Part shown: one piece after another, positions 5,367 to 56,212 of the stretch
Layout of the letters: each line of letters opens with the position of its first letter
Numbering within the stretch: the first letter of the stretch is position 1
Source: Abditibacteriaceae bacterium
Lineage (GTDB): Bacteria; Armatimonadota; Abditibacteriia; Abditibacteriales; Abditibacteriaceae
DNA: 57,781 bases
Direction: 5' to 3'
NCBI GenBank assembly: GCA_031425655.1
Contig: JANPJS010000054.1
Span: 1-57,781 of the forward strand
Position numbers and translations under genes: made by a program
The notes under the pieces: model-generated
The model's database searches: none
Seen by the model: only the letters and a program-made list of their open reading frames with translations
What the model was told of the DNA's origin: nothing

Positions 5367-6555
5367 AATTCAACGGCGCCCCGGCGCTGGAAGCGCCGGG
5401 CTGAAACACGAAGCCCCTGCGGGGCTGAGGATAGCCTCGAAGAGGCTTCGTGTTTTAGCCCGGTCATTCATGGCCGGGTTGGTATTTGTGTCGTTTATAG
5501 CGCCGTCGCTCGCCGCTGATTGGACGCAGTTTCGCGGCAATCCGGCGCAAACCGGCGTCGCGCCCGGCAAACTCTCCGCCGCGCCGAAACTCGCGTGGAA
5601 ATTCAAAACATCCAAGCTCATCACAGCGGCGCCCGCGATTGCCAAAGGGCGCGTTTTTATCGGTTCGACAGACGGAAATATTTACTGTCTGGATGCGAAA
5701 AGCGGCAAGAAAATCTGGTCGTTTGAGACCAAAGACGAAGTCGAAGCCGCGCCGTTGGTGTTGGGCGATTGGGTTTACATCGGCGCCTCCGACCGCTATT
5801 TTTACGCGCTGAATGCCGCGACCGGCAAAATGCGCTGGAAATTCAAAACCGGCGATAAAATTTTAGGCGGAGCCAACTGGTTCGCCGGGCCGGGCGGCGT
5901 GCCGCGCTTGGTTTTTGGCTCTTACGACAACAATCTTTACTGCTTGGATGCCAAAACCGGCGACAAAATCTGGAGCTACGAAACGCCGAATTACATCAAC
6001 GGCAGCCCGGCGATTAGCAACGGCAAAGCAATGTTTGGCGGCTGCGACGGCAACATTCATATCGTGTCACTTAGCACCGGCAAATCGCTTGGCCTCATCG
6101 AAACCGAGGCCTATATCGCGGCTTCTCCGGCGCTTTCGGGCAGCGAACTTTATATCGGCAATTATGGCAATCAGTTTTTTCGCGCCGATGTTAACACCAA
6201 AAAATTGAACTGGACGTATCGAGATAAATCATTTCCGTTTTTCGCCTCGCCTGCGCTGAGCGCCGACCGTGTTGTCGTCGGCTCGCGCGATAAGCGATTG
6301 CATTGCCTGTCGCGTAGCACCGGCAAGGCGCTGTGGACTTTCAACGCGCGCGGCAAAGTGGATTCCTCGCCGATCATTTGCGACGGCAAAGTGGTTTTTG
6401 GTGCTGAAAGTGGGCGCTTGTTTGTGGTGAGTCTGGCAACCGGCGCGCAGCTTTGGTCGTTTGATGCCGGGAAAGCCATCACCGGCGCGCCGGCTGTCTC
6501 GAACGGCTTGATCGTCGTCGGCGCCGAAGACGGCTTTGTTTATGCCTTTCGCTGA
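5350..6555 (+). CDS. PQQ-binding-like beta-propeller repeat protein
   Basis: 'ADWTQFRG' and about 8 'SP...G.V..GS.DG..Y.LD..TG...W.F' blades. Start uncertain (ATG 5350 or 5470). Confidence 0.85.
   Translation: MKKHFEIQRRPGAGSAGLKHEAPAGLRIASKRLRVLARSFMAGLVFVSFIAPSLAADWTQFRGNPAQTGVAPGKLSAAPKLAWKFKTSKLITAAPAIAKGRVFIGSTDGNIYCLDAKSGKKIWSFETKDEVEAAPLVLGDWVYIGASDRYFYALNAATGKMRWKFKTGDKILGGANWFAGPGGVPRLVFGSYDNNLYCLDAKTGDKIWSYETPNYINGSPAISNGKAMFGGCDGNIHIVSLSTGKSLGLIETEAYIAASPALSGSELYIGNYGNQFFRADVNTKKLNWTYRDKSFPFFASPALSADRVVVGSRDKRLHCLSRSTGKALWTFNARGKVDSSPIICDGKVVFGAESGRLFVVSLATGAQLWSFDAGKAITGAPAVSNGLIVVGAEDGFVYAFR
5380..5478. repeat. REP-like palindromic element, family A, at or within the 5' end of the next CDS
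   Basis: Related to 1-86; the reading frame stays open through it. Confidence 0.8.
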
Positions 6556-22263: not shown

Positions 22264-23352
22264 TCAGTAAATCTGATAATCCGGCGCTCGATTATCCGCT
22301 TGCGGCGTTCGGTAGTTTGGCTGCGGCTCCCGATAATCTGGTTGTGGTGCCGGATAGTTTGGCTGCGGCGTGCGATAATCAGGCTGTGGCACTGGATACG
22401 GTGATTGATACGGCGGCTGATAAACCGGCGCGTCACGCGGCGCGTTTTGCGTTTGACGGCGATTAAATCCAACCCATTGAAGCCCGCCGGACAGCGAAAG
22501 CACGTTGCTTTGTGCCCCGGCGGTTTGCAAATTGACGGCGACCGGCCAACGCTGCTGCGGATCGAAATCGTAAAGTGGATTGACCGCGCGTTGCAATTCG
22601 CCCATCACAAATGAGGGCAAGCGCAGTTTTGCGACGGAAAGCGCCAAGTCATCGGCCATCACCTGATTAGAGCGCACGCTGAGCCTTCCTCCGACTTGAA
22701 AGGGCAGATTTATCCCGTAAAGTCCGGCATTGCCGGCCAGCAAAGCGCGCCCGCCGTCGAAGCTCAAACGCACGTCGCGCACCGAAGGCAAACGCGGCGC
22801 CAGCAAACGAGCCGCTTGGTCGGCGCGCAATTGCAAGCGCAAATTGCCCGGCTGCCACGATTGAATCGCAAAGTCGCCCTGCATGGCCTTGAGCCAGTCG
22901 AAGCGAATTTCGCCTAAGTCGGCGTCCAACGATTCGTAGCCGACGCCTTGCAGTGAGAAGTTGGTCGCGTTCAATTGAATGCGACCGATGCGCCCGCCTT
23001 TTCCGCCCAGCGCGCCGCCCAGAATCTGGCCTAAATCGCCTTTGAGAATGTCCTCAATGTCGAAACTCTTGGCAAATGGGCGCGCGTTCAGGCGCGCATC
23101 GGAGTTCTGTGCGCGGTCGGATAAGGCCAGCAGCGAATCGAGGGACGCGCCATCCAGCGAGACGCGGAACGAATCGAAATCGCCCGGCTGCCAGCGATTG
23201 CGGCGCACGGCTTCGACGCGCAAGTTCCTCACAGGCCCAATTTGCTTGCGCAAAGCTGCTTCTGCTGCGCGATTGAGCGAATCGCCCGAACCCGTGACAT
23301 TTTTCAAATCCGTCGTGGACGCCAAAAGCGCCAAAATCAGTAACCAGTGCAT
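22264..23352 (-). CDS. DUF2993/LmeA-like secreted protein with a PQPxY repeat tail
   Basis: Signal peptide, beta-rich body, 7-aa tandem repeats at the C-terminus. Confidence 0.55.
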   Translation of the reverse strand: MHWLLILALLASTTDLKNVTGSGDSLNRAAEAALRKQIGPVRNLRVEAVRRNRWQPGDFDSFRVSLDGASLDSLLALSDRAQNSDARLNARPFAKSFDIEDILKGDLGQILGGALGGKGGRIGRIQLNATNFSLQGVGYESLDADLGEIRFDWLKAMQGDFAIQSWQPGNLRLQLRADQAARLLAPRLPSVRDVRLSFDGGRALLAGNAGLYGINLPFQVGGRLSVRSNQVMADDLALSVAKLRLPSFVMGELQRAVNPLYDFDPQQRWPVAVNLQTAGAQSNVLSLSGGLQWVGFNRRQTQNAPRDAPVYQPPYQSPYPVPQPDYRTPQPNYPAPQPDYREPQPNYRTPQADNRAPDYQIY

Positions 23353-36845: not shown

Positions 36846-37012
36846 TTATGCAGGCTCGAAAAGAGCCTGTTCAAAGCTTGTCGTCTTCAGTGCGTAAATT
36901 TGCAGCCTCGCGGTCACACTCCTCGGAAACTCCTTTTTGGTGCCCCTTCGGACAAACCCTCGTAAAATCTGCCAGACGCCGTCGTCACGACAACAACAAA
37001 GGATTTGTTTTT

Positions 37013-37219
37013 ATGGTTAAGGGAACTGTCAAATGGTTCAACGACTCGAAGGGCTTCGGCTTCATCGAGCAGGAAAATGGTGGCGAGGACGTTTTCGTTC
37101 ATCACGAGGCGATTGAAACCGATGGTTATCGCTCGCTCAAAGAAGGCCAGAAGGTCGAATTTGAAGTGCGTCAAGAGGCCAAAGGCCTGCGCGCTTCCAA
37201 AGTCCGCATCGCTGCCTAA
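37013..37219 (+). CDS. Cold-shock protein (CspA family)
   Basis: 'GTVKWFN..KGFGFI', 'DVFVH', 'L.EGQKVEF'. Confidence 0.96.
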
Positions 37220-37233
37220 GTTGATTCCAACTA

Positions 37234-37270
37234 AAAACGCCCCGCCAAGCATCGCTTGGCGGGGCGTTTT
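37234..37270 (+). terminator. Intrinsic terminator after csp
   Basis: AAAACGCCCCGCCAAGC/GCTTGGCGGGGCGTTTT. Confidence 0.85.
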
Positions 37271-37436
37271 GCATAACGAGGCCGACACTTGCCGCAAAGC
37301 CGAAAAATTGGCGGCGAAATGGCGCCGGTTTCATAATCGCGCAACCGAATTAGAAGTGTTCTATCGCTGATTTGCGGCTTAATAACTTGTTAGCCCGTCG
37401 CGCGCGGCTTGGTTGCGGGTGCTACAATTAAAAACC

Positions 37437-37757: not shown

Positions 37758-37937
37758 CCACAGCCTGATACATTTCTAAAAACCATCGCGGCCATGCGTT
37801 GGTGCTGTTTCCTGCGCTTTGCAGTTGTAAATTATCGCTCATTTCAATCTCCAAAGCCCAAACAACGGGCTAACAAGAGACTATGTTGACAAGGGGTAAA
37901 ACGACCTCTTGTCATTTTTATTTTTCGGCCCTTGTTT

Positions 37938-38945
37938 TCAAGCCTCTTGGGGCTGGTTTTGCGGAAGGTTTTGCCATGACGCATCGAAGGGTTTTTGGTG
38001 TTTGAGTACGCCGAAACAGATCATCAGTAACTTCCTCATGCAAGCGGCTAAGGCCACCATTTTGGGTTTACCCTGCGCCACCAACCTTTGATAGTGCGCC
38101 TTGACCAGTGGGTTCCATGTCAGGGCCGTTACTGCTGGGAAGTAAAGTGCTTTTCGCAAGCGACTGTTTCCTCGTTTGGATAAGTGCGTCGGCTTTCTCA
38201 CACTGGAACCGCTTTTGTGCTCGCGTGGCGCCAGACCAGCATAAGCCGCTGCCGATTGCGCCGAATCAAACTCCGCTACGTCGGGCATCTCAGCCAAGAT
38301 GTCCCACGCGGTAATCTCGCCGATGCCCGGAATGCTTTGCAGCAGTTTACAATCGCGCCCCAAGTGTTCGTGCGCTTTAAGGTGAGCGCGAATGGCTACT
38401 TTCAAACGCAGCATCTCCTTTTCCAAAGCTGCCACCACACGTTTGCCGCTGGACAGAATGGCTTTGTCTTGTCCGGGTGCCTGAAGCCGATTCTTTTCCT
38501 GCACCACAAGCTCACTCAAAGCGTGCAAGCGGCGCGTCAGTGCTTGCAACGCGCGCACTTCACCAGCCGCAAGGCGCCAGAGCGGTGGCTGTTGCTGCTG
38601 ACAATAAAGCGCGATTAACCTCGCGTCGGCCTTATCGGTTTTGTTCCCGGCATTTTGGGCCAGAGCAAAAAAGCGAATCCGCGCTGGATTGACGACGCTG
38701 ACCGCTTGCTGCTTTTCGACCAGAAACAAAGCCACGCTTTGCGAATACGGCCCCGTCGCTTCAAGGCAGAAGTGGCACGGTGAATCCCCGGCCAAAGCCT
38801 GAGTCCAACTCAGTAGCTTTGCTTGGCCTCTGTCATCGTTGGCGAACTGCTTTTCGTGGCGCTTGCCGTCTTTGAGCAGACAAGCATCCAGCGTGTCTTT
38901 GGAGACATCCAGACCAATACAAATAAGCTCCATCGTGGTGTTCAT
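37938..38945 (-). CDS. IS110-family transposase / bridge recombinase
   Basis: DEDD residues in 'IGLDVSK', 'CLEATG', 'KTDKAD'; 'SIPGIG', catalytic Ser region 'HKSGSS', 'GNSRLRKALY', 'ACMRKLL'. Confidence 0.95.
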   Translation of the reverse strand: MNTTMELICIGLDVSKDTLDACLLKDGKRHEKQFANDDRGQAKLLSWTQALAGDSPCHFCLEATGPYSQSVALFLVEKQQAVSVVNPARIRFFALAQNAGNKTDKADARLIALYCQQQQPPLWRLAAGEVRALQALTRRLHALSELVVQEKNRLQAPGQDKAILSSGKRVVAALEKEMLRLKVAIRAHLKAHEHLGRDCKLLQSIPGIGEITAWDILAEMPDVAEFDSAQSAAAYAGLAPREHKSGSSVRKPTHLSKRGNSRLRKALYFPAVTALTWNPLVKAHYQRLVAQGKPKMVALAACMRKLLMICFGVLKHQKPFDASWQNLPQNQPQEA

Positions 38946-38960
38946 ACTCTGCTCCCTCAC

Positions 38961-39115
38961 TCAGCCGAAGTCAAGAACCTGTGCAGGCTTTGCTTCCAGA
39001 GACTATCCGAGATGAATTGAACACCGGGCGTTGGCGCGTCTTCTTGTTAACGAAGTCAAACCCAAACGACTTGCTTCTGGCGCTGCATCGCGCTGATTCC
39101 AACTCCCGATGACAC
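38961..39115 (-). ncRNA. Putative bridge RNA in the IS110 left non-coding end (ends approximate)
   Basis: Contains TGCAGCGCC (39087-39079), TAACAAG (39049-39043) and ATAGTCTCT (39006-38998), matching the left target, right target and IS right end in the expected order. Confidence 0.78.
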
Positions 39116-39364
39116 ACCACAACTTAACCTATGAGGCGCTGCACTCGACCGCCCGCAGCTTGGCTGATTCTCGTTTGCGGTCGCGTTACGCCAAACTTGG
39201 TCTCGGTTCGGCGGGCGGCGGGTGAGCTTGGTCGTTGGGCAGTCGCCGAAGACGCCCTGCATAAAACCGCTCTGCCGCGCGATTTGGATTTGACTGCGTA
39301 TAAGGATCGGCCTTGTAGGTGGTCTCAAGCGCGCCTTTTCCCGTTTCAAGTGTTCTAAAGGATT

Positions 39365-43539: not shown

Positions 43540-43642
43540 CGCGAGTGCGGCGTGTCAAAAAAGTGTAGCCTTCTATATCGGCTGTTCTGTCGCTTGCTCG
43601 CAACCTGGCGGGTGCGGTAGAATCGTGTCGGAGGAAACTCAA

Positions 43643-43972
43643 ATGATTAGAATGCTCTACAAAGAGGGTCGTTATAGCGCTGTCATCATCTGTGACCACT
43701 GCCAAAAGAGAATCGAAGATTATCAACTCGCAGCAGAGAGTGTCATGAGTGGTAATGACAAAAAAGACGGCGAACTGCTGGAGGTCTTTCACGTTCATAA
43801 AGGCGAATGTCTTGACCAAATGGAAAACAAAGCCACAGCTAAAGGGCTACGCATGGGCTGGTCAGAGTTGAGAGACCATTTGCTACAAGTCAGTATGAAT
43901 GTGGGACTTTCGCCTGAAAAGTTGTTAGAGACAGACCAACGGCACAAAGAGACCGGCTTCTACCAACTTTAG
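43643..43972 (+). CDS. Hypothetical protein, possibly metal-binding (CxxC...HxHxxxC)
   Basis: GGAGG RBS, 'CDHC', 'HVHKGEC', AT-richer. Confidence 0.65.
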   Translation: MIRMLYKEGRYSAVIICDHCQKRIEDYQLAAESVMSGNDKKDGELLEVFHVHKGECLDQMENKATAKGLRMGWSELRDHLLQVSMNVGLSPEKLLETDQRHKETGFYQL

Positions 43973-43981
43973 CTGGCTTCC

Positions 43982-44008
43982 GGCGGCGGGTAAACTTGGT
44001 CGTTATGA
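43982..44008 (+). other. Right half of an attC-like site (remnant)
   Basis: GGCGGCGGGTAAACTTGGTCGTT is 21/23 identical to 39214-39236. Confidence 0.55.
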
Positions 44009-53248: not shown

Positions 53249-53452
53249 GAAACTGTCTGAGAATAGCTATCAATCCTGAGTTGAGCCGCTTTCAATAGGA
53301 CGCGGGGCTTCGCCTCGCGGATTTCATGCGCGGATTTTCGCTGATTTCTTTCGGTAAAACCGCGAAAATCAAAGCCGTTTCCGCGTAGCGAAGCTCCGCG
53401 TCCTATTGAAAAGTCTTCGGTTTGAGGCTTTGACGAATTCTCAGACAGCTTC
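53249..53452. mobile_element. MITE with 16-bp TIRs and TAA target duplication
   Basis: TAA-GAAACTGTCTGAGAAT...ATTCTCAGACAGCTTC-TAA; carries the family B module. Confidence 0.75.
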
Positions 53453-53508
53453 TAAAGAAGACGATTAAAGATTTCAGTGCCCACTCTCGTTAGGAAAGCC
53501 GAATACCC

Positions 53509-55968: not shown

Positions 55969-55994
55969 TGATTTTTCTCGAAGCAGGACGTTAA

Positions 55995-56212
55995 GAAGCT
56001 GTCTCAGAATTCGTCAAAGCCTCAAACCGAAGATTTTTCAATAGGACGCGGAGCTTCGCTGCGCGGACGTTGTGCGCGGATTTTCGCTGTTTTTTTCGTT
56101 AAAACCGCGCCTTCAAAGCCATTTCGGGCGCCCTCTGGGCAGGAAAGCGAAGCTCCGCGTCCTATTAAAAAGCGCCTCAACTCAGGATTAATGACTATTC
56201 TCAGACTGCTTC
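55995..56212. mobile_element. MITE, second copy (outer part inverted), TAA target duplication
   Basis: TAA-GAAGCTGTCTCAGAAT...ATTCTCAGACTGCTTC-TAA. Confidence 0.75.

Follow-up and report, generated by a model that had tools for sequence, protein, structure and literature searches.

An IS621-type insertion sequence carrying guides for integron attC sites in an Abditibacteriaceae genome

An intact insertion sequence of the IS110 group occupies positions 37878-39135 on the minus strand of the window, as the whole stretch of 57,781 nucleotides analysed here is called, and measures 1258 bp counting one core. With a probability of about 0.88, it is an IS621-type bridge-RNA insertion sequence with a target loop programmed for the attC sites of its host, a target acquired independently of the IS1111-attC elements. 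IS621 and ISCro4 belong to the IS110 group within the IS492/IS621/Piv branch (PMC11208160, PMC13626964), and the portions of the literature searched describe insertion sequences that target attC for the IS1111 family only.

Structure of the element and its recombinase

The element consists of a recombinase gene between two non-coding ends, the right one of which contains a hairpin:

37938..38945, minus strand: IS110-family recombinase gene (ATG at 38945, stop at 37938, 335 aa; PF01548 and PF02371, NF033542)
37878..37937, minus strand: right end, 60 nt, with the left donor half (37878-37884) and a -35-like hexamer (37887-37892)
37887..37924, plus strand: terminator-like hairpin of 11 bp with a T tract, oriented towards transcripts arriving from the cassette array
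38946..39135, minus strand: left non-coding end (188 nt) plus core, with the right donor half (39133-39128) and a weak -10-like hexamer (39126-39121)

IS621, to which the recombinase is 41.2% identical, and ISCro4 are its only close relatives with a solved structure (E about 1e-61), and the catalytic residues D13, E62, D104 and D107 of the DEDD RuvC domain as well as the serine of the C-terminal domain, S245, are all intact. A preliminary description of this locus had assigned the element an IS110-group anatomy with an upstream non-coding end and no evident inverted repeats, and this anatomy holds: 188 nt of non-coding sequence lie upstream of the recombinase gene versus 60 nt downstream, and sub-terminal inverted repeats are absent, the longest inverted match between the element ends being 6 nt and out of register, with matches of 3-4 nt near the ends. 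The 2-bp core at 37876-37877 occurs again at 39134-39135, reading AG on the plus strand and CT on the element strand, and the homology is no longer than these two bases. By comparison with IS621 and ISEc21, the -35-like and the weak -10-like hexamers of the two ends may together serve as a promoter. A search of Rfam over the element and the attC site gave no match at E values up to 5.

The rejoined attC site and its cassette

The element separates two pieces of an attC site:

37868..37877, plus strand: left piece of attC, R'' (37868-37874) plus three spacer nucleotides up to the end of the core; the same context is present at four other right-end junctions
39136..39240, plus strand: right piece of attC, with the remaining spacer, L'' (39138-39144), the extrahelical bases G39141 and A39148, L' (39222-39227) and R' (39234-39240)

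Deletion of the element and one core from the flanks by script regenerates a site of 115 bp, in which R'', a 5-nt spacer, L'', two extrahelical bases, L' and R' are arranged as an attC. Compared with the intact 115-bp sites C100, C193 and C326 of the same genome, 100, 98 and 97 of the 115 positions, respectively, are alike. The earlier proposal that the insertion target is an attC site thus stands, as do the two extrahelical bases, which are unpaired exactly where they had been placed. An attC pattern found 29 sites in the genome and none in each of three shuffles; two of these sites were left out as unlike the others, and the HMM built from the remaining 27 gave 66 matches on 32 contigs of the genome. 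With this host-built HMM the rejoined site scores 59.9 bits, versus 50.4-50.8 bits for the right half alone. Furthermore, the 10 bases that end with R'' are perfectly complementary to the 5' end of the cassette at 37389-37398, a characteristic mark of cassettes that have been integrated. With a folding energy of -20.0 kcal/mol, the bottom strand of the rejoined site is not more stable than shuffles (z -0.65), whereby the L stem forms and the R box stays open; pairing of the R box by force costs 0.5 kcal/mol, and it is open in the three intact sites too.

As a separate observation, many attC sites of the host, including the one at 37856-37874, and those of relatives carry a degenerate second R''-like box approximately 10-11 nt upstream of R''.

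Two further features are located upstream of the attC site:

37372..37395, plus strand: attI-like site, the same motif being located between intI and the first cassette on contig C103
37437..37757, plus strand: cassette gene of 106 aa, with a GC content of 0.46 versus 0.57 for the window

Over 10 bp the core of the attI-like site complements the R'' end exactly, and its crossover would fall between G37389 and T37390. Six of the eight matches of this motif in the genome have an attC match at most 3 kb downstream, and it heads cassette arrays on C16, C54, C100, C193 and C211, contigs without an integrase, the sole integron integrase of the genome (428 bits, cut-off 265) being encoded on C103 with four attC sites beside intI. 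The 106-aa cassette gene has no family match in Pfam or NCBIfam. As this one gene and the attI-like site precede the attC and no intI adjoins, the window holds a one-cassette array without its own integrase.

Elsewhere in the window, a 115-aa gene without family followed by only the right half of an attC (L' and R'; 21 bits) at 43625-44007 is a second cassette relic. At 36849-37269, upstream of the attI-like site and close to it, lies a cold-shock gene with a weak match to the cspA leader (40 bits, gathering 78) and a terminator. The repeats of the window include a 21-bp tandem repeat and several palindromic ones that are dispersed, at 22282-22407, 53290-53456, 55991-56169, 1-86 and 5380-5463.

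Predicted bridge RNA and proposed mechanism of insertion

The left non-coding end is predicted to encode a bridge RNA with two loops, the second of which extends into the start codon of the recombinase gene:

39026..39110, minus strand: target-binding loop, left target guide 39087-39079, right target guide 39049-39043
38937..39025, minus strand: donor-binding loop, left donor guide 39006-38998, right donor guide 38959-38956

The left target guide equals L'' and the spacer as far as the first core base, while the right target guide complements the core and R''. Core-anchored matches were compared with those in 20000 shuffles of the non-coding end. The 9-nt match of the left target guide was reached by 19 shuffles, the 7-nt match of the right target guide by 259 and both jointly by none of the 20000; the 9-nt match of the left donor guide was reached by 27/20000. 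The 4-nt match of the right donor guide is not above chance (6669/20000) and is supported by its position and by covariation, TGAG of the guide being replaced by TAAG where the donor is altered. Of the conserved TAAC of R'', which the guides had been proposed to cover, the AAC is indeed conserved, but the T is present in only 7 of 31 host targets and the corresponding guide base differs among relatives. The genome contains 31 copies of the 14-bp target, 30 of them within HMM matches, versus an expectation of about 0.05; this enrichment is in part circular, sites of this kind having gone into the HMM.

Twelve aligned left ends of relatives have the layout of IS621, as compared with L120. In the outer stem of the target loop seven of eight pairs are changed on both sides, and stem covariation amounts to 0.353 versus 0.147 in shuffled and at most 0.114 in slid alignments, totals that are lowered by one out-of-register helix (30% paired) and have to be read with the caveat that relatedness of the sequences can lift values above those of such shuffles. 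The left donor guide tracks changes of the right end at two positions, and the relative L041 has an altered left target guide which matches its variant flank.

An 8-bp stem within 38937-39025, in which the 5' side of the donor loop pairs with the start codon region, is nearly invariant in the 12 relatives and could limit translation of the recombinase.

For IS621, a circular intermediate, a junction promoter, recombination of duplex DNA at CT and a bias towards insertion have been reported (PMC13626964). By analogy, the element would excise as a circle, the joined ends of which would form a promoter, and recombinase and bridge RNA together would bring the donor loop to pair with the circle junction and the target loop to pair with attC in its double-stranded form, the chemistry being carried over from IS621. 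Recombination would occur at the CT of the R''-L'' spacer, where position and orientation of the insertion are observed; with these guides, recombination at this CT would always place the element antisense to the array. As judged from the anatomy, insertion puts R'' 1258 bp away from L''-L'-R', so that the attC should be disabled for the integrase, and cassette excision would be blocked. The predicted terminator in the right end should, if active, keep array transcripts out of the element, and downstream cassettes would consequently be silenced.

The guides cover an extrahelical base and the spacer, which are without a partner in the folded attC strand, and the target is therefore probably read as a duplex. 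That the element instead recognises the folded, single-stranded bottom strand by its structure, and not by guide pairing to the duplex, seems unlikely, although it always lies on the bottom strand like group IIC-attC introns, which, like the integrase, read the folded attC strand, and two separate groups of elements, the second described below, strike both hairpin arms near the same stem/spacer junction. The left guide reproduces the sequence of the R'' arm across the extrahelical base and the spacer and would be mismatched to the L' partner, right-end relics on C63 and C284 are located at R'' boxes without another attC match nearby, and IS621 itself acts on duplex DNA (PMC13626964), all of which argues against a structural recognition.

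Relationship to IS1111 elements

A tree of 34 rows (LG+G4) unites eight members of the attC-targeting clade as one group with support of 100/97, places L012 and L052 as its sister (100/99) and splits off four IS1111 references at 100/100, the placing of IS621 being weakly supported (83/44); a quick tree of 69 rows with 17 clade members agrees (94). IS1111 is represented in these trees by ISEc11 and IS5075, both members of IS1111 (PMC11187229), and by up to three look-alikes labelled by their likeness to ISEc11, and not by the proteins of ISKpn4, ISPa21 and ISPst6. The suggestion of an independent attC lineage in the IS110 subgroup is thus borne out insofar as the clade is separated from ISEc11, IS5075 and the look-alikes. 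Nesting of the clade with ISEc11 (p 1.6e-44) and with IS5075 (p 4.5e-5) is rejected, and the IS1111 references as its sister are not (p 0.075).

It is very improbable that the element is a rearranged member of the known IS1111-attC group. Elements of that group do insert in the same half of attC in the same antisense orientation (PMC3001079), a few IS1111 members break the rule for the non-coding region and have an upstream region instead (PMC11187229), and a sister position of the IS1111 references is compatible with the tree. Yet besides the rejected nesting with either ISEc11 or IS5075, the element shows 41% identity to IS621, an IS621-like donor and loop layout and no sub-terminal repeats, and a search of the window's genome with ISEc11 at E 1e-25 misses it. 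Core and position differ as well: ISKpn4, ISPst6 and ISPa25 insert before a CG 5 nt from the R'' box (Table 1, PMC13604230), and the core of the element is 3 nt nearer to R'' than this cut point. The independent uptake of attC by this lineage is accordingly supported, with the separation drawn by other IS1111 references, by anatomy, by the cut position and by published placing.

None of the IS1111-attC proteins is named among the matches listed in plasmid searches. In 301 genomes of the phylum a single IS1111-type match was found (L132), with no attC at its ends. Four loci tried as IS1111-attC references turned out not to be in cassette arrays, and ISEc32 was dropped as an IS1111 reference as it has an upstream IS621-like region.

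Repeated insertion at one attC position

The element has seven further matches in the genome, and all seven end at one and the same position of attC, the CT of the R''-L'' spacer. Two left and two right ends are 100% identical and are cut off by the ends of their contigs, and the other three matches are two relics of the right end and a left end that has diverged; one of the seven copies is located in the integrase-linked array on C103, those on C63 and C284 have no other attC match within 5 kb and the attC remnant at C172 is degenerate.

Related loci were surveyed at 57-91% identity (17 loci). The right end was located in 15, with an R'' box next to it in 14, the exception being L039, the junction of which does not fit; the left end was located in 10, and L'' precedes it in all of them. 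The survey of the flanks of homologues envisaged in the preliminary description thus finds 14/15 right and 10/10 left junctions in attC at the same CT. Both junctions fit in 7/17 loci and the right junction alone, a test of 4 nt, in another 7/17, and the counts are not independent, as several loci are near-copies (L043/L045, L054/L056). L008 and L136-L138 also fit the attC placing, while the nearest outside relatives, L012 and L052 (54% identity), are not in attC. No empty allele of the locus was found in three genomes of the same genus, and one sequencing contig set, possibly the source of the window DNA itself, held neither an empty site nor a circle joint, which carries no weight either way.

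That the repeated placing goes back to one old insertion spread with cassettes by the integrase, and involves no repeated targeting, is scarcely credible and already largely refuted by the different flanks: cassettes are mobile and the copies on C103 and C284 have about 17 nt of flank in common, but within a single genome element ends of identical sequence abut five or more different attC bodies or cassette genes, elements that are 57 to 91% identical occupy different attC sites and the guides spell the attC site.

Several derivatives of the elements were also observed. Right-end-only relics of 40-90 bp, in which the terminator-like hairpin is preserved, are located at R'' boxes (C63:16705-16754, C193:51731-51820, C63:15799-15836 and L137). 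L136, on genome G033, is a clade member broken within the gene, with an internal CT joined directly to an R'' box. In L064 and L104, relatives outside the clade, the right end is directly followed by left-end sequence, as in a circle junction or a tandem copy.

A second attC-targeting group, the donor shift and the terminator-like hairpin

Among relatives with 41-56% identity, both junctions were located at 47 loci, at 30 of which removal of the element restores a full attC pattern, the insertion lying in the L' arm (examples are L013, L020, L037, L038, L060 and L074), whereas 8 of 2430 random CT positions fit this heuristic pattern. The loci were sampled with peptide patterns derived from an alignment, as the best 80 of 518 matches, and thus carry no information on frequency. 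This group keeps the IS621-type donor. The picture is consequently wider than the one initially drawn: an attC-targeting IS621-type lineage exists as suggested, but it is not alone. A single origin of both groups was considered and rejected, one clade being incompatible with the tree at p 8.7e-5. Many left junctions of the L'-arm group read TT or AT where the right junction reads CT, and the first core base therefore need not match.

The right half of the donor reads CT-YAT in 11/11 members of the window's clade versus CT-TGT in 24/24 others detected, a detection limited to the listed patterns, with L074 left out as misassigned, and on the tree the shift is a single event. Had the old donor been retained, the two junctions formed by insertion would each match a donor as well as a target perfectly over the core guides, which would select for keeping donor and target apart.

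The terminator-like hairpin is present in 16/16 clade members with a located right end (irregular in L040 and L048) versus 0/81 other relatives, and right-end relics on C63, C193 and G019 retain just the hairpin part. A replacement R'' provided by the left end was considered and rejected, the AAC of this end being located 9 nt from L'', not 5.

Discussion

Like IS621 and ISCro4, the element combines a two-domain recombinase with the same catalytic residues, an upstream non-coding end and a CT core (PMC11208160, PMC13626964), a target loop followed by a donor loop with a left guide of 8-9 nt and a right guide of 4-7 nt (lengths from PMC11208160), and a related donor in which the first handshake bases favour insertion (PMC13626964). 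Unlike these relatives, from which it is separated by an identity of about 41%, it targets attC and not REP, its donor is changed on both sides of the core, its right target guide is 7 nt long and its right end contains a terminator-like hairpin. With the IS1111-attC elements ISKpn4, ISPst6, ISPa21 and ISPa25, on the other hand, it has in common an RNA-guided insertion in the R''/L'' half of attC and the antisense orientation (PMC3001079, PMC11187229, PMC13604230), but those have a downstream non-coding region and sub-terminal repeats, whereas in the element the non-coding region is upstream, such repeats are absent and the CT core lies beside R''. Group IIC-attC introns are likewise mobile elements specialised on attC and its bottom strand, and affect the expression of downstream cassettes, an effect which the anatomy suggests for the element as well; they are, however, retroelements with outward promoters (PMC3001079), instead of which the element possesses a terminator-like hairpin.

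No IS110-group element is named as attC-targeting in the literature searched, although Tetu & Holmes 2008, Post & Hall 2009 and ISfinder, which are outside its scope, could hold one. In the parts of the bridge RNA study covered, attC occurs only in a reference title, and among the rows listed of its supplementary target lists many are attC-like and centred on the GT of R'' (PMC11208160); these rows, which give no IS110/IS1111 group, count against full novelty. The lineage is thus apparently undescribed, while neither its machinery nor the notion of insertion sequences that target attC is new.

A broader scenario can be offered tentatively, at somewhat less than even odds: attC would be a recurrent prey, onto opposite arms of which at least two separate IS621-type lineages, besides the IS1111-attC elements, reprogrammed their guides; the lineage in the window would have altered its right donor half because the old version of that half was equalled by the new target (CT followed by TGT), and would have gained an array-silencing terminator that can persist as a relic of 50-90 bp. 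If this holds true, cassette arrays would be frozen and silenced by such elements, which would also provide natural examples of the difference between donor and target that directional bridge recombination requires. The donor shift would then be a natural test of how much likeness of donor and target is tolerated before bridge recombination loses its direction. The effect of such insertions on cassette mobility and expression has been posed as a question (PMC11616780), on which the terminator-like hairpin bears. A convergent IS621-type route with readable guides would represent repeated RNA retargeting onto one site and would offer compact candidate tools directed at integron arrays, and the findings suggest that mobile DNA invades integrons by a route other than that already described.
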